From NCBI GenBank assembly GCA_021780675.1, contig JAJXYH010000013.1, positions 593-64,592 of the forward strand: 64,000 nt of DNA, read 5' to 3'. Position numbers and translations under genes: made by a program. Positions 30,875-61,139 of the stretch are shown here, piece by piece (position 1 is the stretch's first letter; every line of letters begins with the position of its first letter). The notes under the pieces are model-generated. The model did no database searches. It was not told where the DNA came from and saw nothing but the letters and a program-made list of their open reading frames with translations. The stretch is from a bacterium. Lineage in GTDB: Bacteria > Patescibacteriota > Microgenomatia > Levybacterales > UBA12049.

Positions 30875-31812
30875 AAAATTCGCATCCGTTACAGACCATG
30901 CTTTGGGCACAATTTAGAACAAACACGGGTATAAAAGTTATAAATTTAAATGATTTATTTATTACAATCCATCCCGTTCCGCACACAAATTATGCAATCG
31001 GATATTTACCAAAAGGGCCTGATGTCACTAAAGAATTATTAGACAGTCTTTGGGAACTGGGTAAAAAGGAAAATTGTATTTTTATTCAAATTGAGCCAAA
31101 TATAGAAAAAGACAATAAAAAATACAATTTCAAAAATTTATTTCCTTCTGCTCATCCACTTTTTACAAAATATAACTTTATTTTAGATTTAACAAAATCA
31201 GAAGATGAGTTATTAAAGAACATGCAACCAAAAACAAGATATAATATACGTCTTGCACAAAAAAGGGGAGTAACCGTAAAAGAGGACAACAGTGATAATG
31301 CGTTTAAAGAGTACATAAACTTAACTAAAGAAACTACTAAAAGGCAGAATTTTTATGCACACACAACAAAATATCATGAAATAATGTGGGATACTTTTAA
31401 AAAAAACAAAAATAATGATCCTGACAATTTTACGCCTCATTTATTAATAGCACGTTACGAAGGTAAAGTATTAACAGCATGGTTATTGTTTTCTTTAAAA
31501 GACACTTTATATTACCCATACGGTGCGTCGACAATTGAACATCGTGAGGTTATGGCTTCAAATTTAATGATGTGGGAAGCCATAAGGTTTGGCAAAAAAA
31601 TGGGTTTGAAAAAATTTGACATGTGGGGGGCGGCAAATGTAGAAACCCCTAAACCAGATAATATATATTATGGATTCCATAAATTTAAATCGGGGTATGG
31701 ACCAAGACACGTCGAATATATGGGAAGTTATGATTTTGCAATAAGAAAAAACTTATATCTTTTTTATAAACTTGCCAATAAGTTAAGGTGGATTATTCTA
31801 AAATTTAGATAA
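30871..31812 (+). CDS. FemAB-family peptidoglycan interpeptide aminoacyl-transferase-like protein.
   Basis: PKTRYNIRLAQKRGV and YYPYGAS blocks are typical of FemX/FemAB. 313 aa. Confidence 0.55.
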   Translation: MKNSHPLQTMLWAQFRTNTGIKVINLNDLFITIHPVPHTNYAIGYLPKGPDVTKELLDSLWELGKKENCIFIQIEPNIEKDNKKYNFKNLFPSAHPLFTKYNFILDLTKSEDELLKNMQPKTRYNIRLAQKRGVTVKEDNSDNAFKEYINLTKETTKRQNFYAHTTKYHEIMWDTFKKNKNNDPDNFTPHLLIARYEGKVLTAWLLFSLKDTLYYPYGASTIEHREVMASNLMMWEAIRFGKKMGLKKFDMWGAANVETPKPDNIYYGFHKFKSGYGPRHVEYMGSYDFAIRKNLYLFYKLANKLRWIILKFR

Positions 31813-32320
31813 TATACAATTTTAATCTATTTTCTTTATCTATTAGTTGTGGCTTTTGATCTTCAATATCATATATAAAACTTACAATTTTTGTTCCTTT
31901 TTTTAATTCTTTTTTAAATTTAGGAAGCAATTTTTTTAATGCTACAGGAACCAAATATACTATTACAACCGTTGCTTCAGATATATTCTCCTTAAAAAAG
32001 TTATCTTTTTTAATAATAACCTTACGTTCTAAATTATTTTTCTTAATCCTTAAGATTGCAATCCAGACCCTTATTGGATCAATCTCTATTCCAACACCTT
32101 TTGCCCCAAGCTTCCCTGTCTGAATAAGAACCTCCCCATCCCCACAACCTAAATCGTAAACTACGTCTTTGGAGGAAATTTTTGCCAGTTTACAGATTGC
32201 CTTAGCAGTTTTAGTATTCGTTCTCCACCATGGTGCCCAAGGACTATCCGGCGGCCAAATCATTGATAAAAAAATCAATAACACAAAAACTATAAAAATG
32301 ATAATTACATTTACTAACAT
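31805..32320 (-). CDS. Membrane-anchored class I SAM-dependent methyltransferase.
   Basis: N-terminal TM helix. Motif I VYDLGCGDG and motif post-I GIEID. Confidence 0.6.
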   Translation of the reverse strand: MLVNVIIIFIVFVLLIFLSMIWPPDSPWAPWWRTNTKTAKAICKLAKISSKDVVYDLGCGDGEVLIQTGKLGAKGVGIEIDPIRVWIAILRIKKNNLERKVIIKKDNFFKENISEATVVIVYLVPVALKKLLPKFKKELKKGTKIVSFIYDIEDQKPQLIDKENRLKLYII

Positions 32321-32604
32321 TAAATAATTTTAAATACTTTACCTAAAATATTTTTACGATCTATGAAGCCAATTTTTCTACTATCTAAACTGTCATTTAT
32401 ATTATCACCAATTACAAAATATTGATTATCTTTAATTTGGGAGATTCGCTTTACCATTTTCTTATTATTGAACTTAAAAGCAACTATATCATTAACTTTG
32501 GGTTCTTTAAATATGTAAAATAAATTACTAACCAGTACGATGTTATTATTTTTAAGTGCAGGTTCCATGCTGTGTCCAATTATTCTTAATTTACCAAGAA
32601 GCAT
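32320..32604 (-). CDS. sodX: S26/S24-type serine peptidase, the NiSOD maturation protease SodX.
   Basis: Catalytic Ser box GHSMEP and downstream KRI(S) Lys dyad. 94 aa. Start lies directly at the stop of sodN. Confidence 0.6.
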   Translation of the reverse strand: MLLGKLRIIGHSMEPALKNNNIVLVSNLFYIFKEPKVNDIVAFKFNNKKMVKRISQIKDNQYFVIGDNINDSLDSRKIGFIDRKNILGKVFKII

Positions 32605-33086
32605 TATTTGTAGATTACTACTTCACCTTCTGTGGGGTAAACAGATTTAATTCTGACCGGAGTAACCTTTTTTGTCTTATAAAAAATTTCCGCTATTTCC
32701 AAAACTCCATAAAGTGCCATGAGTGCCGAATCCATATCTATGTTCTGTCTTGCTTTTGCCGAAGCTCTTAGAGTTTTCACAAATAACTCGTTTAGGTTTT
32801 TGAATTCATTAAAATGTTCATCCTTAAAATAGTCATTTCTAAGTGTTTCCAGTTCTTCTTCTAATAAATCCGAGTGTTTTTCTTTAACATGAGTAATTCT
32901 TGCAATTGTGTGATCTGAAGTTAAATTATCATCTTGTTTTATATCTTGTAACATCTTGGTCATTCTTACTACTGTGTGTGCAGCAAGTTGTGCCTGATGT
33001 GGATCATAAATTCCGCAAGGAATATCACAATGCGCAAAAGCAATGTCTTCTTTTATAAATTTTGTAACAAATTTAATAATGTTCAT
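32604..33086 (-). CDS. sodN: Nickel-containing superoxide dismutase precursor.
   Basis: 18-aa propeptide followed by the Ni-hook HCDIPCGIYDP (His-Cys-x-x-Pro-Cys-Gly-x-Tyr). Four-helix-bundle-length protein, 160 aa. Confidence 0.8.
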   Translation of the reverse strand: MNIIKFVTKFIKEDIAFAHCDIPCGIYDPHQAQLAAHTVVRMTKMLQDIKQDDNLTSDHTIARITHVKEKHSDLLEEELETLRNDYFKDEHFNEFKNLNELFVKTLRASAKARQNIDMDSALMALYGVLEIAEIFYKTKKVTPVRIKSVYPTEGEVVIYK

Positions 33087-33127
33087 TATTTGAAAATAGT
33101 ACTACTTAAAAAAAGAAAAGTCAAAAC

Positions 33128-33739
33128 TTAAAATCCTAAAGCTTCGTTTACTATAATTGCAGTTACCCGGTCTTTTACAGGTTCTTTTGTATAAATAACA
33201 AGCTTACTTACGTTGCTGGGAATCCCATAAAGCTTCTTAAGTCTTTCCGACTCAAGCGGTAAAACATAATCGTATATCCTTCTATTTGCCTCCTCGAGAT
33301 CTTTTACGATTTTTTGCGCACCAATTACCCATATTACCTTTCCGGCGCTAAACACATATGCCGCCATTTGACTCCCTGAATTTGATACAACCAATACTTC
33401 TCCTAACTCTGTTACAGCGTGAACGCTACCAACAATAACTTGAGGAGTTGAACGAAGTTCCCGTATTCTATCAGCATCTTTTTCATGATCTAATGCCATA
33501 TATTCTTTTCTTACCGAAACGATGTTATCCGAATTTTCAATTTCATTCGCAATATCTGTTTGATTAAGAGTTTCCGACTGACTAGCTAAAACCCGTGCTC
33601 CTTGAGGAATTAATTCTAATACTTTTTTCTTTGCCTCCTCGGAAGTTTCTACAAAATATGCATCTATATTTCTGTTTTTAAGATTATTAACTACTTTATG
33701 TATAATATTTTTGTCTGCAACTTTTTTCCAATCATTCAT
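33128..33739 (-). CDS. LUD-domain (LutC/YkgG-like) protein.
   Basis: About 200 aa. The central VIVGSVHAVTELGEVLVVSNSG...VIWVIGAQKIV pattern resembles LUD-domain proteins. Confidence 0.4.
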   Translation of the reverse strand: MNDWKKVADKNIIHKVVNNLKNRNIDAYFVETSEEAKKKVLELIPQGARVLASQSETLNQTDIANEIENSDNIVSVRKEYMALDHEKDADRIRELRSTPQVIVGSVHAVTELGEVLVVSNSGSQMAAYVFSAGKVIWVIGAQKIVKDLEEANRRIYDYVLPLESERLKKLYGIPSNVSKLVIYTKEPVKDRVTAIIVNEALGF

Positions 33740-33755
33740 ATTGACATGATAAACT

Positions 33756-34100
33756 ATGCACTATATAATGTCAAGTAGTTACAATAAGTATAGTATGGGA
33801 AACAGAGATATACAAGAAATTTCAAAAGTTGCAAAAATTATCGGTAGTAAATGGACACTCTCAATAATTAATTCTCTTTTAGAAGGAACTAAAAGGTTTG
33901 GGCAACTACAAAAAGAGGTTGGTGAAATAAACCCTCGAACCTTATCTAAAAGACTGCAAGATCTTGAAAAACAGGGTTACCTTACAAAAAAAGTTTACGC
34001 TCAAGTTCCACCCAAAGTTGAATATTCTTTAACCAAAAAGGGTGGGGTTTTTAAATTAGTAGTAAGTGCCGTTAAAACTTGTGATAATAAGTTAAAATAA
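33756..34100 (+). CDS. HxlR-family winged-helix transcriptional regulator.
   Basis: KWTLSIINSL...RFGQLQ...NPRTLSKRLQDLEKQGYL..K.Y..VPPKVEYSLT matches the HxlR signature. Divergent from the LUD/NiSOD genes. Confidence 0.75.
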   Translation: MHYIMSSSYNKYSMGNRDIQEISKVAKIIGSKWTLSIINSLLEGTKRFGQLQKEVGEINPRTLSKRLQDLEKQGYLTKKVYAQVPPKVEYSLTKKGGVFKLVVSAVKTCDNKLK

Positions 34101-38870: not shown

Positions 38871-39425
38871 ATGAAAAATGATGTGGCAACTTTTGCCGGC
38901 GGCTGTTTTTGGTGCACAGAAGCAATATTTAAAAGATTAAAGGGTGTTTACTCTGTAACACCTGGTTATAGTGGAGGGGATATAGAAAATCCTTCTTATG
39001 AAAAGGTTTCCTCGGGAGAAACCGGACATGCAGAAAGTATTCAAATAAAATTTAATCTTGAAGAAATGCCTTATGCAGTACTATTAGAAATTTTCTGGCA
39101 TACCCATGACCCCACTACTATAAACATGCAGGGTAACGATATTGGCACACAATATAGATCGGCAATTTTTTATCATTCTGAAGAACAAAAAAATCAGGCC
39201 CTTGAATCCAAGAAAAAAATTGAAAAAGATAAAATCTATAAAGATCCAATCGTAACTCAAATATTACCTTTTAAGAATTTTTATGAAGCTGAAAATTACC
39301 ATAAAGATTATTATGACCGAAATAAAGATTATCCGTATTGCAATTTTGTAATAAGTCCCAAAATAAAAAAACTTATGGATAAATACAGTAAATTCGTTAA
39401 GAATGAATATTTAGAAAATAACTAG
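38871..39425 (+). CDS. msrA: Peptide-methionine (S)-S-oxide reductase.
   Basis: Active-site GCFWC motif at the N-terminus. Confidence 0.9.
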   Translation: MKNDVATFAGGCFWCTEAIFKRLKGVYSVTPGYSGGDIENPSYEKVSSGETGHAESIQIKFNLEEMPYAVLLEIFWHTHDPTTINMQGNDIGTQYRSAIFYHSEEQKNQALESKKKIEKDKIYKDPIVTQILPFKNFYEAENYHKDYYDRNKDYPYCNFVISPKIKKLMDKYSKFVKNEYLENN

Positions 39426-40672: not shown

Positions 40673-41092
40673 TTATCTCTTAAACTTTGGGTAATAATTT
40701 ATTGTTAGAGCAATTACAAAACTTAATAACATTACCAGCTGACAAGTTAAACAAACAGGACAAATAACATGTAGAACAAATATCTCCTGAATCGTTAAAT
40801 AAAGGCAAAATATCATTCCAAATGTTACAATTGCCAAAACTGTTTTAGATTTCCTTAGTATTGATGACAATAATATGCCTATATACCCAAACAAACCAAT
40901 AATTGAAACTGGTATTCCCAAAATGGTTGAAAGAGCACCTTTCGTAACAGCATCGCAATTAACAGAACTATTTATATAGCATGACTCTAATACTGGTTTT
41001 GTTAAATAATTATAAAAAAGATACAGTGCAAGTAGTATTCCTATTACAGATAGAGTAGTCAAAACTTTCCAAATATTCAGTTTACTTAACAT
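40673..41092 (-). CDS. Vitamin K epoxide reductase (VKOR) family thiol-disulfide oxidoreductase.
   Basis: 4 TM helices. Loop cysteines (CYINSSVNC) and active-site CPVC in the last helix. Confidence 0.7.
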   Translation of the reverse strand: MLSKLNIWKVLTTLSVIGILLALYLFYNYLTKPVLESCYINSSVNCDAVTKGALSTILGIPVSIIGLFGYIGILLSSILRKSKTVLAIVTFGMIFCLYLTIQEIFVLHVICPVCLTCQLVMLLSFVIALTINYYPKFKR

Positions 41093-54016: not shown

Positions 54017-54090
54017 GCCAGGGTAGCTCAGTTGGTTAGAGCACAAGATTCATATCCTTGCGGTCGTGAGTTCGAATCTCACCCCTGGTA
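54017..54090 (+). tRNA. tRNA with a CAU anticodon (elongator tRNA-Met, or tRNA-Ile2 if C34 is converted to lysidine).
   Basis: Cloverleaf folded by hand. Acceptor GCCAGGG/CCCTGGT (G1-U72). D-arm GCTC-AGTTGGTTA-GAGC. Anticodon loop TTCATAT (U33, CAT, A37). T-arm GTGAG-TTCGAAT-CTCAC. Discriminator A, no encoded CCA. One A31-C39 mismatch. Confidence 0.8.
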
Positions 54091-55289: not shown

Positions 55290-56150
55290 ATGAAACAAGT
55301 TACCCTAAAAAATGCTCATGAAGAGTTTAAAAACTTTTTAGAGCAAAACAAGAAATCTGCATCAACTGTCGTTGCTTATGGCAAGGATATTGACCAGCTT
55401 ATTGGTTTTTTGGAAGAGGTTAAAAAGAATAATGTTCATGAAGTTTCTACAGAAGACATTCAAGCCTTCTTGGCTAAGCTTGGAAACGAAGGTTATACTC
55501 CAAAATCAGTCTCAAGAAAAATAAACTCAACCAGAACTTTTTATAGGTTTCTAAAGGTCAATGAGTATGTAACCGACGACCCTTCACTTTTAGTTTCCCA
55601 TCCCAAATATCAACTTGCCCCACCCAGAATTTTAACTCCCACAGAATATAGAGCATTAAGGGATGCTGCCAGAAACGATGCAAGAATGTTTGCAGTTATT
55701 GAGCTTTTGCTCCAAACCGGAATTAGGATCGGGGAACTGGCAAACCTTAGACTCTCCGACATAGTAAAAGATTCACTTCATATTGCCCCATTTGAAAAAC
55801 ACGAAGAAAGAAATGTCCCATTAAACAAAAGCGCACAAGCCGCATTAAATAAATATCTAGAAGCAAGACCCAAAGTTACCGATGATCATGTTTTTGTAAC
55901 AAAGAGCGGGAAACCATTTTTAATAAGAAATATTAGAACCGCGGTTGAAAGATATTTTAGGTTAGCAGAAATTAAAGGTGCAAAAGTAAATGATTTAAGA
56001 CATACATTTGTTGCTCATCATTTAAAACACGGAGTGTCCTTAGTTATGCTTTCTAAAGTTTTGGGGCATAAAAGAATTTCTACAACCGAAAGGTATCTTC
56101 AATACGTCCCAGATAGAGGCAAAGAAACCTCAACGCTAACCGAACTATAA
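55290..56150 (+). CDS. Tyrosine site-specific recombinase of the XerC/XerD family.
   Basis: N-terminal SAM-like core-binding domain (STVVAYGKDIDQLIGFL). Catalytic R...HxxR...Y (RHTFVAHHL ... RISTTERY) with Tyr at the C-terminus. Confidence 0.8.
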   Translation: MKQVTLKNAHEEFKNFLEQNKKSASTVVAYGKDIDQLIGFLEEVKKNNVHEVSTEDIQAFLAKLGNEGYTPKSVSRKINSTRTFYRFLKVNEYVTDDPSLLVSHPKYQLAPPRILTPTEYRALRDAARNDARMFAVIELLLQTGIRIGELANLRLSDIVKDSLHIAPFEKHEERNVPLNKSAQAALNKYLEARPKVTDDHVFVTKSGKPFLIRNIRTAVERYFRLAEIKGAKVNDLRHTFVAHHLKHGVSLVMLSKVLGHKRISTTERYLQYVPDRGKETSTLTEL

Positions 56151-56238: not shown

Positions 56239-56310
56239 TGCCCCCGCTTGGATTCGAACCAAGGACATCTACTTTATAAGAGTAGCGCTCTACCGCTGAG
56301 CTACAGGGGC
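56239..56310 (-). tRNA. tRNA-Ile with a UAU anticodon.
   Basis: Reverse complement folds as GCCCCTG-TA-GCTC-AGCGGTA-GAGC-G-CTACT-CTTATAA-AGTAG-ATGTC-CTTGG-TTCGAAT-CCAAG-CGGGGGC-A. All stems perfect, one G-U wobble. Anticodon loop C-U-UAU-A-A. Confidence 0.8.
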
Positions 56311-56354: not shown

Positions 56355-58727
56355 TTAAAGTCTTGCTCTTTGGGCAATTTGGGTTTCTAAATTAACGACG
56401 TCTTTACCGTATTTAAGTCTTGAAAGCTCACGAATAAGCTCTGCAACCCTTTGGTTTTCCATCGCTTTTTCTTTTGCCATATCCTTAGTAGTATCCATCG
56501 AAAACGGAGTTACCGGTTCGTTTTTTACAATTGTTTTAACAAAAGCATTAAAAACATCAACATTAATTAAATCCGCTTCGGTAAAAATAGGTTGGAATTC
56601 ATGCTGCAAATAACTTGCATCTGTTACACCCACCCTAAAAGACATTATTGTTCCAACGTTTCCAAAAATTGCGTTTTTAACCTCTTCATCCATTTGTCCA
56701 ATAAACTGGTTTGCAACAATTAAATTCAATCGATATTTTCTTGCCTCCGATAAAATTTGCGCAAAATCCGGTGTAGCGAAATTTTGGAACTCGTCAACAT
56801 AAAGATAGAAATCTTTTCTTTGCTCTTGTGGAACATCTTGTCTACTCATGGCGGCAACTAAAATTTTAGGTACCATAACAAGTCCTAAAAAGTTAGAATT
56901 TTCTTCTCCGATTTTTCCTTTAGAAAGATTTACCAAAAGAATTTTTTGCTCATCCATTACCTTTCTAAAATCAAAGGCTGATTGTGATTGACCGATAATA
57001 TTTCTCATCATTTTATTAGTAACAAACCTACCAAATTTGGAAACTATATAATCCAAGGTTTCCGACTTATGAAAATCGCTGGTTTGGGCGATCTGATCAG
57101 TCCAGTAACGCCTAACAATGGGGTCTGAAACTTTAGGCAATAACTCTTGTACAAACGAGGCATCGGTTAAAGCTCTTACCACCTCTATAAAAGTACTACC
57201 TTGCTCATACATAACCGTAAGCATTGCATTTCTAATTGCATGCTCAAACCTTGGACCAATAATACCGGTTTTATTAGGATCGTAAAGTTTATACATGAGC
57301 CCTACAATTGATGAAACAATATAATGTTTTTCCTGTTCGGTTTGTGCTTCTAGCATATTAAGTCCCATTGGTCTTTGTGAATCTGATGGATCAAATAAAA
57401 TAACATCTTCCGCTCTTTTAGCAGGAATCATTTTAAGTATGTCTTCTATTAAATCTCCGTGCGGGTCAATTACTCCGATTCCTTTTCCCTCCTGAATATC
57501 CTGGATTATCATTTGCTTAAGAAGTTCAGATTTACCAACGCCGGTTTTTCCAATAATGTACATGTGCCTTCTCCTATCGTCATCCTGAATATAAACTGGC
57601 TTACCAATTCCTCTAAATGTACTCATTCCCAAATAAAGTCCGCTTGATGGAATTTGCGATGGAGCCGGAGCCCTTTTTGCATTAATCCATTCAATATGTG
57701 GAGTTGTTACGCTTTTATTTGGAAAATGGAATATTCCTGCCAACTCCTCGCTATTTAAAACAGATAAATTTCCATTTGAAGGAAAATACCTATAAACAAA
57801 ATCTGAAATAAATCCTCCCTTTAGCCAATGTTTATTTTTACTTAAGGAGTTGCTTCCGTCAAACTGGCTAAAAGAAGTTAAAATATTTTCAAGATGGGCT
57901 GTTGCCGCTTCGCTTGATGAAGAAGAGACTACAATTCTAATGACTGCATAAAACCCAGGTTTTGAAATTTTATTCTCAATCGCTTCCAACTCTTTAGGAT
58001 CCGATGAATACTTTGCAGTTTCCGGGTTTGACTCATTTTTCTTGGTTGTTGCAATAAAACTTCGCCCAGCCTTACTCCATTTACTATCTGCTCCTGATAT
58101 TAAAATTTGAATTGCCGCACCTTCACCTTGACTCATTTTTGCAAGAACAGAAGTAATTGAAGCAAGCGGGTCAACTGCAAAGTCCTTATATAATTTTAAG
58201 GATTTAAAATTAGAATCCTTTAGCTTAAGCGATGCAAAAGCAACTTTACCTTCCTTGCTAAAAATATTATATTCGTTGCCAATGATATACCCTTCTTTTG
58301 ATCCCTTTTCCTCAACAACTCTAATTTCTGCATCCGGGTACGAAGCATTAATTTGTTTTTCAACTAAATCTTTATATTTGTTAGGTGTATAGATATAAAA
58401 TCTTATATCTTCGGGCATTCCAACAATTTCAAATGAGATATGCGGAGGATTTTTTAAAAAAGAGAACATTCCGTGAGCTTTAATTCCGGCAAAACTTGCA
58501 AACATTTGTTCGGCTGCATCTATTTTTATTTCATTATCCCTTGGAAGAGAGATTTGAAGAAGTGTAGAATCTAAAGACTGCTTTTCCCTATCCCTGTTTT
58601 TATACCAAATCATCAAAACGTAAGTAACAGCAAAAATTCCAACAATAATAATCGCCAACAAAACAAGGACTACGAAAACTGCAATTATCACATTAAACAT
58701 GTTTGATAAAGAAAAGGCTTGAATCAT
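56355..58727 (-). CDS. Membrane-anchored P-loop ATPase of the VirD4/TraD/TraG (type IV coupling protein) or HerA-FtsK superfamily. 790 aa.
   Basis: N-terminal TM helix. Roughly 380-aa domain of unknown function. Then Walker A IIGKTGVGKSE, a VIDPHGDL block and a Walker-B-like LYVDEFQNF. Confidence 0.55.
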   Translation of the reverse strand: MIQAFSLSNMFNVIIAVFVVLVLLAIIIVGIFAVTYVLMIWYKNRDREKQSLDSTLLQISLPRDNEIKIDAAEQMFASFAGIKAHGMFSFLKNPPHISFEIVGMPEDIRFYIYTPNKYKDLVEKQINASYPDAEIRVVEEKGSKEGYIIGNEYNIFSKEGKVAFASLKLKDSNFKSLKLYKDFAVDPLASITSVLAKMSQGEGAAIQILISGADSKWSKAGRSFIATTKKNESNPETAKYSSDPKELEAIENKISKPGFYAVIRIVVSSSSSEAATAHLENILTSFSQFDGSNSLSKNKHWLKGGFISDFVYRYFPSNGNLSVLNSEELAGIFHFPNKSVTTPHIEWINAKRAPAPSQIPSSGLYLGMSTFRGIGKPVYIQDDDRRRHMYIIGKTGVGKSELLKQMIIQDIQEGKGIGVIDPHGDLIEDILKMIPAKRAEDVILFDPSDSQRPMGLNMLEAQTEQEKHYIVSSIVGLMYKLYDPNKTGIIGPRFEHAIRNAMLTVMYEQGSTFIEVVRALTDASFVQELLPKVSDPIVRRYWTDQIAQTSDFHKSETLDYIVSKFGRFVTNKMMRNIIGQSQSAFDFRKVMDEQKILLVNLSKGKIGEENSNFLGLVMVPKILVAAMSRQDVPQEQRKDFYLYVDEFQNFATPDFAQILSEARKYRLNLIVANQFIGQMDEEVKNAIFGNVGTIMSFRVGVTDASYLQHEFQPIFTEADLINVDVFNAFVKTIVKNEPVTPFSMDTTKDMAKEKAMENQRVAELIRELSRLKYGKDVVNLETQIAQRARL

Positions 58728-59311: not shown

Positions 59312-60466
59312 TTAACATCTGACGTTTTTTCCACAATCCGGATTTTGACAATTTTCTATTAATTGGTTTTCCGGTCGTAAATTTTTCCAACCACAATGCG
59401 GACAATCAAAAGTTCTGTCTCCAAATCTATCTTTTAATTTCCCAAACTCCGAAACACTAAACGGGGCTTTACCTGGCTCCATAAAACTTCCCAAACTAAA
59501 TCCTTCCGAAGTTCCGGGACATGGGCCTTGAGCCTTACGGACATTTTTTGTTCCCATAGCCCAGGAAATATCTTCGGCATAATTTGGGTCAAATGCATAT
59601 CTGTAATACAAGCTGTCCAAAAATTTAGAATCTCCGTTTTTAATTGCATCCAGAACCATATCTGATTGGTTTAGAATTGCATTGTATTTAAGTCTGTGGA
59701 TAAAATGATCGTTTGGTAAACCAACTAAAGAATTTATATAGCTTGTAATAAGAGGTGCGTTTATTTTATTGATTTTATCCATCTCGTCTTTTTCCAAAGC
59801 CTTTATACCGCCGTTTAGATATTTTTGGAGTTCTCCTGAATTATCGAATCCTGTTACTTTTATCGGGTCTTTTAGAAAATCCTCAGCTTTTGGCAAATTT
59901 TCGAAAACTTTAAAAGGTGCTACTCTTTGTCTATATTCATCTGCTGTAAGGTTTGATAAGAAACGTCTGTGTTCTACATATCTTCCTTTTTCATCCTCCT
60001 GAACCGAAAATGTATCAAAAAAATTGTTTGTATAATCCGACCCTGCAATACCCGGAAGCGACACCACCAAGAAAGTAGTTCCGGGAGGGATGTCTTCGTT
60101 AACCAGTTCAGGCTGCATTAGCTTAACTCCGGCAAGTTCTGCATCTTCCCTTTCAAAATCAATAGGATTCCCGTGCTCTCTTCTAAAATTAATTCCATTT
60201 ATCATCATGTCCTCAAGCGATTGTCCCATTGAGGCGGAAAAAATTTTACCCTCAACAATGTCATAACGCGTAACAGATTCTGCAACCTGCACCCTTTCAC
60301 CCATATACGTCTCAAGTTGTCTTTGAGTATATTCTTTTAACCTTTGTTGCTCTTTAAGAGATAGTTCGGAAAAATTTTCATAATCCCTCTCATCAAACGA
60401 AGGATTATATGCAAGTTTTGCCTCTTCCTGTCTATTTGGTATGTAATTTAGTCCTTCTCTTTCCAT
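59312..60466 (-). CDS. Hypothetical 384-aa cytoplasmic protein with a C-terminal Cys4 zinc ribbon.
   Basis: C-terminal CPHCGW...CQNPDCGK. No other recognisable domain. SD GAGGAG 7 nt upstream of the ATG. Confidence 0.4.
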   Translation of the reverse strand: MEREGLNYIPNRQEEAKLAYNPSFDERDYENFSELSLKEQQRLKEYTQRQLETYMGERVQVAESVTRYDIVEGKIFSASMGQSLEDMMINGINFRREHGNPIDFEREDAELAGVKLMQPELVNEDIPPGTTFLVVSLPGIAGSDYTNNFFDTFSVQEDEKGRYVEHRRFLSNLTADEYRQRVAPFKVFENLPKAEDFLKDPIKVTGFDNSGELQKYLNGGIKALEKDEMDKINKINAPLITSYINSLVGLPNDHFIHRLKYNAILNQSDMVLDAIKNGDSKFLDSLYYRYAFDPNYAEDISWAMGTKNVRKAQGPCPGTSEGFSLGSFMEPGKAPFSVSEFGKLKDRFGDRTFDCPHCGWKNLRPENQLIENCQNPDCGKNVRC

Positions 60467-60495
60467 AAAAAAACTCCTCTTTTCTTTTCGAGGAG
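60467..60495 (-). terminator. Intrinsic terminator of the nrdR-nrdJ-pduO operon. Its 3' arm doubles as the SD of the downstream gene.
   Basis: Minus-strand RNA: CUCCUC-GAAAAGAAAA-GAGGAG-UUUUUUU-AUG. Confidence 0.45.
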
Positions 60496-60593
60496 TCTTA
60501 TAAAAAGCACTTTTTGCTCGAAAAGATTTTAAGGGGATCTGGCTTTACAGTTGCGGCACAGCGTCGGAATTACACCGACTTTCACCCTAAGAA

Positions 60594-61139
60594 TCATCTG
60601 GATAACCAAATAATTTCTTTTTTGTTTTGTTTCTTATTTATAAATCTAGCATACATAAAAAGCAAGTCCGAAAGCCTATTCATGTAAATTAAAATTTCAT
60701 TGCCAACCTTTTCTTTTTCGGAAAGTTCAACAACCCTTCTCTCCGCACGGCGTACTAATGTTCGCGCAAAATGTAAACTTGCCCCTACTTCCGAACCTCC
60801 CGGAAAAATAAAATTTCTTAAAACCGGCAATTTTTTTGTTAATCCGTCTATTTCTTTTTCAAATAATTTAACTTGTTCTATCAGATGTTTTTCCAACGCC
60901 TGATTATTTAATTTGCTTGGGTTTGCTAAATAAGCGCCGATTTGAAATAAATCGTTTTGAATAACTTCTAAATTTTTTTTAATATTTTTGTTTTTATTCT
61001 TGGAAAGTATGACACCAAGATAACTATTTAGCTCATCAAGCGATCCATAGGTATTAACACGAAGCGAAGCCTTAGAAACTACCTTTCCTGCAAAAAGAGA
61101 AGTCTTGCCTTTATCACCAAATTTAGTATAAATGGACAT
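60594..61139 (-). CDS. PduO-type ATP:cob(I)alamin adenosyltransferase.
   Basis: N-terminal IYTKFGDKGKTSL matches the PduO/MMAB signature IYTKTGDKGTTSL. 181 aa. Confidence 0.8.
   Translation of the reverse strand: MSIYTKFGDKGKTSLFAGKVVSKASLRVNTYGSLDELNSYLGVILSKNKNKNIKKNLEVIQNDLFQIGAYLANPSKLNNQALEKHLIEQVKLFEKEIDGLTKKLPVLRNFIFPGGSEVGASLHFARTLVRRAERRVVELSEKEKVGNEILIYMNRLSDLLFMYARFINKKQNKKEIIWLSR

Follow-up and report, generated by a model that had tools for sequence, protein, structure and literature searches.

A nickel superoxide dismutase gene coupled to a SodX-type peptidase gene in a Levybacteria-type genome of the Patescibacteria

Genes at the sodN locus

The window analysed here (the whole stretch of DNA, 64,000 nucleotides in length) carries on its minus strand a gene for a nickel superoxide dismutase (NiSOD), sodN, directly followed by a gene for a small SodX-type peptidase. 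The features of these two genes are:

32604..33086, minus strand: sodN, a 160-residue NiSOD preprotein (open reading frame table, profile and structure matches)
33033..33086, minus strand: codons of the 18-residue propeptide, MNIIKFVTKFIKEDIAFA (open reading frame table)
33000..33032, minus strand: codons of the Ni-hook, HCDIPCGIYDP (read from the sequence)
32607..32666, minus strand: C-terminal extension of SodN, residues 141-160, a predicted beta-hairpin (AF2 model and alignment)
32320..32604, minus strand: sodX, a 94-residue soluble Ser/Lys endopeptidase of the S26 family (profiles, alignment and synteny)
32569..32571, minus strand: codon of Ser12 of SodX, in the box GHSMEP
32449..32451, minus strand: codon of Lys52 of SodX, in the box VKRIS

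The two genes share a base, 32604, which belongs both to the TAA of sodN and to the ATG of sodX (TAATG). A model that had read the letters alone (the sequence-only reading) had named this pair a NiSOD preprotein and its maturation protease, and the identity of both proteins was borne out: the Sod_Ni, TIGR02753 and Peptidase_S26 profiles all scored above their cut-offs and the predicted fold of the first protein is that of NiSOD. The same reading had considered that sodN might turn out to be a fragment of a larger unrelated protein, which is not so; neither gene is a fragment of a larger protein.

The SodN preprotein and its Ni-hook

The SodN preprotein begins with MNIIKFVTKFIKEDIAFA, immediately followed by HCDIPCGIYDP. 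Position 33086 is the most upstream sodN start after a stop, and because no further ATG, GTG or TTG lies between it and His19 the propeptide comprises 18 residues; in most close relatives it has 17-20. The propeptide ends in A-F-A (Ala16-Phe17-Ala18), which places Ala at positions -1 and -3 and thereby forms an A-x-A site of the kind that signal peptidases recognise. This pattern is widely kept: among 244 hook-containing homologues, position -1 is Ala in 238, and position -3 is Ala in 189 and Val in 48 (237 with either residue).

In the hook, the Ni ligands are His19, Cys20 and Cys24, and Tyr27 is the counterpart of Streptomyces Tyr9. When SodN was compared with the PDB sequences by phmmer, Streptomyces NiSOD was the sole match (1t6u/1q0d, E about 1e-18); residues 19-27 (HCDIPCGIY) aligned to residues 1-9 of 1t6u, and His19 was paired with the mature His1 of 1t6u/1q0d. 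The hook positions H, C, D, P, C, G, Y, D and P showed no variation across 30 relatives, and H1, C2, P5, C6, G7 and Y9 were without variation in 204 members of the NiSOD family, a set for which the hook motif was itself the selection criterion. The open reading frame is thus as the sequence-only reading had described it, with the hook behind an 18-residue propeptide ending in Ala, and the hook holds in the proper alignment for which that reading had asked.

The profile searches which it had suggested were also run. Pfam PF09055 (Sod_Ni) matched SodN with 116.6 bits (cut-off 25; E=1.3e-33) over profile positions 3-127 of 127, and NCBIfam TIGR02753 with 121.6 bits (cut-off 90; E=3e-35) over positions 7-145 of 145. 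An AF2 model of SodN (pLDDT 85.8) is a four-helix bundle, and in a Foldseek search with this model all 16 PDB matches at E<=0.001 were NiSOD chains, with target-normalised TM scores of 0.86-0.92. The propeptide and the hook form the low-confidence region of the model. The hook of NiSOD becomes ordered only on binding of Ni, and the low confidence of this region fits such behaviour.

The four-helix bundle is followed by an extension with two predicted strands (residues 143-147 and 155-159, block-mean pLDDT 87-88 in the AF2 model), in which R145, K147, Y150, P151, T152 and E155 are invariant within the clade. A C-terminal hairpin specific to the CPR was considered as a possible novelty and ruled out: 36 of 84 diverse representatives clustered at 50% identity are extended by 15 residues or more, and, judging from these sequences, this is a common long form of the NiSOD family. 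Likewise, Ala35 and His71 of SodN replace Glu17 and Arg47 of the Streptomyces enzyme, which are the hydrogen-bond partners of His1 there; these residues of SodN were rejected as an unusual feature, since they are the majority states in the family (Ala in 50 and His in 47 of the 84).

Relatives of the locus

A search of 5.8 billion proteins with SodN returned 2425 homologues, the best 120 of which are 62-79% identical to it and nearly all 157-168 residues long. Several of these 120 are annotated as 'superoxide dismutase, Ni [Patescibacteria group bacterium]', and several are from Patescibacteria or Levybacteria by name. The identical SodN protein was found on contigs of NCBI assembly GCA_021833605.1, ENA and Logan. 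In a pattern scan with one genome per species, at least 578 stretches encoding relatives were recovered, and the best 80 of these were used for the comparison of loci. Almost all of the 80 are from Patescibacteria (Levybacteria, Daviesbacteria, Woykebacteria, Curtissbacteria, Microgenomates, Saccharimonadales or other Patescibacteria). They include TPA assemblies titled 'uncultured Gammaproteobacteria' with 31-44% GC, many of which have the same synteny and a UvrD that is 57-79% identical; the label of these assemblies is almost certainly a placeholder.

Within the Levybacteria-like lineage a block is conserved in which sodN, sodX and a methyltransferase gene are followed by FemAB and UvrD in convergent orientation. 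The third gene of the block is, in the window:

31805..32320, minus strand: a 171-residue class I SAM methyltransferase with a transmembrane helix at the N-terminus and homology to the crenarchaeal protein-lysine methyltransferase aKMT

This protein matches PDB 5fa8/5jwj, the aKMT of Sulfolobus islandicus, with E=3e-27 and shares with it the class I SAM methyltransferase core (residues 27-161), to which the bacterial protein adds a WPPDSPW motif, which is conserved, and the N-terminal transmembrane helix, which 59 of 60 homologues share. The aKMT equivalog model NF041081 scored 106.4 bits, under its cut-off of 200; on sequence, the protein is best described as an aKMT homologue, yet not filed as aKMT.

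Its gene is probably co-transcribed with sodN-sodX, and it might be asked whether the three genes form a functional module, in which the membrane-anchored, aKMT-like methyltransferase would act on NiSOD or SodX as a new accessory factor of NiSOD, for instance by methylating conserved lysines or by anchoring the enzyme to the membrane. The gene is co-directional with sodX, with a stop/start overlap of 1 nt (base 32320 is common to the sodX stop and the methyltransferase ATG), it is the next gene after sodX in 59 of the 80 best loci, even where insertions part it from FemAB, and in one locus it stays together with sodX although sodN is 2.8 kb off; in addition, the homology to aKMT is clear and SodN has invariant lysines, including K147 of the C-terminal hairpin. 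However, stop/start overlaps also link unrelated genes in the window (e.g., UvrD/FemAB), and the junction between sodX and the methyltransferase gene is looser than that between sodN and sodX, with a gap of <=0 nt in 31 of the 59 loci. Moreover, the association is limited to the Levybacteria-like lineage, in which synteny extends equally to the unrelated FemAB, UvrD and TIM; sodN-sodX and FemAB/UvrD occur in five loci without the methyltransferase gene, which is also absent from the more distant Daviesbacteria, Woykebacteria, Curtissbacteria and Saccharimonadales. We regard a module of three genes as unlikely, and the association of the methyltransferase gene with sodX may be lineage synteny only. 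The chances are slim, too, for the more specific proposal that in Levybacteria the methyltransferase modifies or localises the long-form, hairpin-bearing NiSOD, as part of a three-component module co-transcribed in roughly three of four loci; if it were true, NiSOD would have in the methyltransferase an accessory factor that has so far gone unrecognised.

The SodX peptidase

SodX scored 75.8 bits (cut-off 22.9; E=5.1e-21) with PF10502 (Peptidase_S26), the second Pfam check that had been suggested, and 74.4 bits (cut-off 47) with TIGR02227 (sigpep_I_bact). The sequence-only reading had pointed to the boxes GHSMEP and KRIS in this 94-residue open reading frame, and Ser12 and Lys52 do align to solved signal peptidases: together with residues 66-76 (GDNINDSLDSR, a GDNxxxSxDSR box) they correspond to boxes B, D and E of the signal peptidase I chains 4nv4 and 4me8, and box E was additionally aligned to 1b12. 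The motifs G-x-S-M-x-P, K-R and G-D-N-x-x-S show a conservation of 90% or more across 74 SodX homologues encoded next to sodN.

With the dedicated model TIGR02754 (sod_Ni_protease) SodX reached 60.9 bits, 2.3 below the trusted cut-off of 63.25, and this shortfall, alongside the passing score with the general sigpep_I_bact model, could be read to mean that sodN has for a mere neighbour the gene of a signal peptidase I, generic or degenerate, and that SodN is matured by another protease. Such a reading is very unlikely for several reasons. The protein has no membrane anchor (the highest Kyte-Doolittle mean over 18 residues is 0.81), and with 94 residues it is about as long as the SodX model (90 positions), with which it aligned end to end (positions 2-88). 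The gene lies directly 3' of sodN in 79 of the 80 best loci, the remaining locus stopping at a contig edge, and the junction mostly involves overlapping codons, with a gap of -4, -1 or 0 nt in 61 of the 79. Finally, the A-x-A cleavage site of SodN is the pattern preferred by S26 enzymes. The score under the TIGR02754 cut-off is consistent with a divergent SodX orthologue.

Distribution and ancestry of the gene pair

The sodN-sodX pair occurs widely, and in syntenic position, in Levybacteria and in further Microgenomates/Patescibacteria. UvrD, FemAB and TIM occur in the same order in the window and in the other loci, and the window proteins are 57-83% (UvrD), 48-66% (FemAB, apart from a single outlier at 30%) and 34-64% (TIM) identical to their counterparts. 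The GC content of the 32001..34000 bin is 32%, against 28-39% in the other bins of the window, so that sodN-sodX resembles its flanks; from the matching GC and the conserved synteny we conclude that the pair is an old, vertically inherited part of the Levybacteria-type genome. Although the phylogeny of NiSOD is dominated by horizontal transfer and Patescibacteria clusters nest in Chloroflexota (10.1101/2021.01.12.426412), a recent arrival of the pair as an island, or its origin from mis-binned contamination, is extremely improbable given this base composition, the Levybacteria-type housekeeping genes on the same contig and a block that is syntenic in more than 50 species, which implies that any transfer of sodN-sodX was ancient.

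The sequence-only reading had regarded a NiSOD with its maturation machinery as unusual in a small AT-rich genome. This does not hold in view of the at least 578 stretches with relatives, the presence of sodX behind sodN in nearly all of the loci compared and the published NiSODs of Patescibacteria (10.1101/2021.01.12.426412); sodN-sodX is standard equipment in these tiny-genome bacteria of the Levybacteria/Patescibacteria.

Upstream neighbours and putative promoters

Upstream of sodN, two further genes and three promoter-like sites were recognised:

33128..33739, minus strand: gene for a 203-residue LUD-domain (LutC-like) protein (PF02589, 82.7 bits)
33756..34100, plus strand: gene for a winged-helix regulator of the HxlR family (PF01638, 80.5 bits)
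33741..33774, both strands: face-to-face pair of sigma-70-like promoter sites in the 16-nt gap between the LUD and HxlR genes (consensus match only)
33096..33124, minus strand: weaker promoter-like site in the 41-nt gap between the LUD gene and sodN, TTGACT-17-TACTAT (9/12, consensus match only)

The LUD gene is on the same strand as sodN and 41 nt upstream of it. This slot varies among the 80 best loci: a LUD gene occupies it in 10 only, a gene for an FMN reductase (FMN_red) in 7, and other genes are found elsewhere; a Pyr_redox_2 oxidoreductase is encoded a few genes upstream of sodN in 8 of the 80. To survey the neighbourhoods in relatives, 1052 neighbouring open reading frames were clustered and the frequent clusters were annotated with Pfam. 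They comprise FMN reductase, a Pyr_redox_2 oxidoreductase, a ferredoxin-reductase-like protein, MsrA, methyltransferases, a TrwB-like ATPase and others, none of these recurrent families being a transporter candidate. Flavin and thiol-redox genes recur among the neighbours of sodN. In the window, genes for MsrA and VKOR are found near sodN.

The sequence-only reading had placed an HxlR-type regulator divergently at 33756..34100. Its position and family were right; the gene is, however, divergent from the LUD gene and not from sodN. A role as dedicated regulator of sodN was rejected, as an HxlR gene is found near sodN in 8 of the 80 loci only, each time with another gene (LUD or FMN_red) between them, from which, and not from sodN, it diverges. 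The RrpB-like model scored 74 bits with this protein, under its cut-off, and the RrpA model likewise remained under its cut-off. In the redox-sensing HxlR/DUF24 subgroup (YodB, HypR), a conserved N-terminal Cys precedes G-x-K-W by about 14 residues. The protein of the window has Ile at this position and its sole Cys near the C-terminus; by its sequence, it differs from the thiol-sensing YodB/HypR type in having no such N-terminal Cys.

Between the LUD and HxlR genes, the plus-strand site (33741..33769, TTGACA-17-TATAAT) agrees with the consensus at 12 of 12 positions and the minus-strand site (33774..33746, TTGACA-17-TATCAT) at 11 of 12, both being consensus matches only, and the pair forms an inverted repeat of 11 nt. 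The true start of HxlR may be a later ATG, at 33768 or 33795: the plus-strand promoter would begin transcription past the first two ATGs, so that the real start might be the one at 33795. The public gene call of HxlR has 110 residues. As regards the weaker site in front of sodN, many matches of 9/12 are expected by chance in AT-rich DNA such as this. Perhaps sodN-sodX is transcribed together with the upstream LUD gene, too.

Nickel supply and other oxidant defences

Pfam annotation covered essentially every open reading frame of at least 90 residues in the window. Among these, no NiCoT, HupE/UreJ, CbiMNQO, Nik or other metal importer was found in the 64 kb, which agrees with the earlier remark that no route of nickel supply is visible in the window. 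A nickel chaperone and an enzyme for the removal of H2O2 were not found in the 64-kb window either, nor did the Pfam annotation of the window reveal a second SOD, a superoxide reductase, a catalase or a peroxiredoxin. NiCoT, HupE, CbiM and Nik were likewise missing from the frequent neighbour clusters of the 80 sodN loci.

An AdoCbl riboswitch at 60524..60599 was considered as a control element of a Co/Ni transporter and discarded for this role, since the open reading frame downstream of it encodes a soluble protein of no known family. The riboswitch (AdoCbl-II, minus strand) lies upstream of a conserved orphan protein of 384 residues, in a context of NrdR, class II RNR and PduO, and this arrangement seems more novel than the NiSOD finding.

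A proposed route to active NiSOD

We consider it highly probable (roughly 0.92) that sodN and sodX encode a functional, cytoplasmic NiSOD system in this Levybacteria-type (Patescibacteria/CPR) genome, a view that draws on profiles, alignments and gene order. Family membership, the conservation of every ligand and catalytic residue, the fold and, over about 80 species, the tight coupling of sodN and sodX are shown by the present data, and from the systems of Streptomyces and Prochlorococcus we infer the cleavage of SodN, its Ni binding, its activity and its oligomeric state (hexamer). In the route we propose, sodN would be translated as a preprotein of 160 residues and the 94-residue SodX co-translated with it. 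By analogy, SodX, a soluble, signal-peptidase-I-like endopeptidase with Ser12 and Lys52, would cut after Ala18, by which His19 would become residue 1 of SodN. Ni would then be bound by the new N-terminal amine, the backbone amide of Cys2 and the thiolates of Cys2 and Cys6, the imidazole of His1 taking the axial position at Ni(III), and ping-pong cycling between Ni(II) and Ni(III) would convert superoxide to O2 and H2O2. The predicted scaffold for this site is the four-helix bundle plus the extra C-terminal beta-hairpin.

The complete NiSOD/SodX pair, as in hundreds of relatives, implies that the Levybacteria cell meets oxygen and needs trace nickel. The pair is real and correctly identified, yet neither such a system nor its presence in this taxon is new, and the main value of the finding is a correct annotation.

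Comparison with known NiSOD systems

A close known counterpart is the NiSOD of Streptomyces coelicolor and S. seoulensis (1t6u, 1q0d) with SodX (SCO5254/SCO5255), which also has an adjacent cognate peptidase of the S26 type; for Streptomyces, the literature assigns SodX to SodN as its peptidase (PMC3919588). Both SodN proteins carry H-C-D-x-P-C-G-x-Y-D-P right behind a propeptide that ends in Ala, and both form the same four-helix bundle (target-normalised TM 0.86-0.92, 31-34% identity). The mature protein of the window is longer, with 142 residues against 117 in Streptomyces, because of the C-terminal beta-hairpin, an extension which Levybacteria-type SodN carries and the crystallised Streptomyces NiSOD lacks. 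In contrast to Streptomyces, sodX of the window is co-directional with sodN and translationally coupled to it, and regulation of the Nur/sodF type is not evident at the window sodN.

Peptidase-dependent activation of NiSOD has reportedly been shown for Prochlorococcus by Eitinger in 2004. In marine Prochlorococcus and Synechococcus, as in the window, NiSOD and SodX are encoded in a small, streamlined genome, whereas the cyanobacterial hook is of the HCDGPCGVY type and that of the window reads HCDIPCGIY. Cyanobacterial sodN loci reportedly include a putative Ni transporter gene, sodT, and nothing comparable was found at the window sodN or among the frequent neighbours in the 80 loci. SodX is known as the activating protease of NiSOD in cyanobacteria, and marine picocyanobacteria with NiSOD as their only SOD have small genomes (PMC8346466), a precedent against the view of the sequence-only reading that a NiSOD in a small genome is unusual.

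Within the Patescibacteria, metagenome-assembled genomes from groundwater were reported to contain SOD genes in 66-83%, sodN being among those sought (10.1101/2021.07.28.454184). A preprint on the phylogeny of NiSOD (Sutherland et al. 2021; bioRxiv 10.1101/2021.01.12.426412) described at least three Patescibacteria clusters nested in the NiSODs of Chloroflexota; these are the same kind of protein, from the same superphylum, as the SodN of the window, whose own clade numbers at least 120 proteins with 62-79% identity. In this preprint, sodX, a peptidase and C-terminal features are not mentioned. The anatomy of the operon, with the coupling of sodX, the methyltransferase gene and the variable redox neighbours, is added detail to these systems and not a new kind of system.

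A methyltransferase gene and redox genes accompany sodN

The gene behind sodX, the gene of the maturation protease of nickel superoxide dismutase (sodN), encodes a relative of aKMT, the crenarchaeal protein-lysine methyltransferase.

31805..32320 (-): membrane-anchored aKMT homologue (matching the solved structure PDB 5fa8, E=3e-27)

It lies behind sodX in 59 of the 80 best sodN loci, all 59 of the Levybacteria type, and its product carries a conserved WPPDSPW motif C-terminal to the transmembrane helix. The name in the public annotation, '50S ribosomal protein L11 methyltransferase', is probably wrong.

The surroundings of sodN in the Levybacteria-type lineage include genes of redox metabolism and oxidative repair (MsrA, VKOR, FMN reductase, a Pyr_redox_2 oxidoreductase and a ferredoxin-reductase-like protein), with MsrA and VKOR among those in the window. 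No H2O2-scavenging enzyme was found anywhere in the 64 kb.

38871..39425 (+): redox/oxidative-repair neighbour
40673..41092 (-): redox/oxidative-repair neighbour
33128..33739 (-): LUD-domain gene, the neighbour upstream of sodN

Only 16 nt separate the LUD-domain gene from the divergent HxlR regulator, and at this gap a pair of putative sigma-70 promoters, each a near-perfect match to the consensus, stands face to face, making an 11-nt inverted repeat.

33741..33774 (both strands): two opposed sigma-70 consensus promoters (12/12 and 11/12 consensus matches)

As predicted from sequence, the minus-strand promoter would yield a leaderless LUD mRNA, and the position of the plus-strand one would imply a later start codon for HxlR, possibly at 33795.

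Taxon labels of related genomes

Many TPA_asm MAGs with sodN (L014, L017, L025, L027-L030 and others; GC 31-44%) are titled 'uncultured Gammaproteobacteria bacterium'. Because many so named (e.g., L014, L029 and L037) combine low GC with the Levybacteria-type sodN-sodX-methyltransferase-FemAB-UvrD synteny, the label is doubtful, apparently either a placeholder or a mistake. Locus L080, titled Methanomassiliicoccales, has a GC content of 59% and a sodN ORF lengthened to ~360 aa.

An orphan ORF behind an AdoCbl-II riboswitch

59312..60599 (-): AdoCbl-II riboswitch and 384-aa ORF (counterparts in relatives: L087, 4787-6161; L088, 4324-6116)

The riboswitch (RF01689, 60524..60599, minus strand) scores 40.5 bits against a gathering cut-off of 36.5, with a class II (B12-dependent) RNR and a PduO adenosyltransferase immediately upstream and the ORF downstream. 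The predicted product is soluble, with Cys316, Cys355, Cys358 and Cys373 invariant, and has only 35 homologues among 5.8 billion proteins searched. Pfam, NCBIfam and PDB-sequence searches gave no match, nor did Foldseek against the PDB (best E 0.058) with a confident AF2 model (pLDDT 83.5). The order NrdR-RNR-PduO-ORF is kept among relatives even where identity falls to 32%, and two of the four examined also have the riboswitch. The ORF may encode an undescribed factor for B12 salvage or delivery.

A coupling ATPase beside a recombinase

54017..54090 (+): tRNA gene
55290..56150 (+): tyrosine recombinase
56239..56310 (-): tRNA gene
56355..58727 (-): TrwB/VirD4-like coupling ATPase, 790 aa

The ATPase gene adjoins a tRNA gene and the recombinase gene. 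Since this arrangement recurs in three relatives (L087, L088 and L090), the region looks more like a conserved chromosomal feature, XerC/D-like in kind, than a mobile element.
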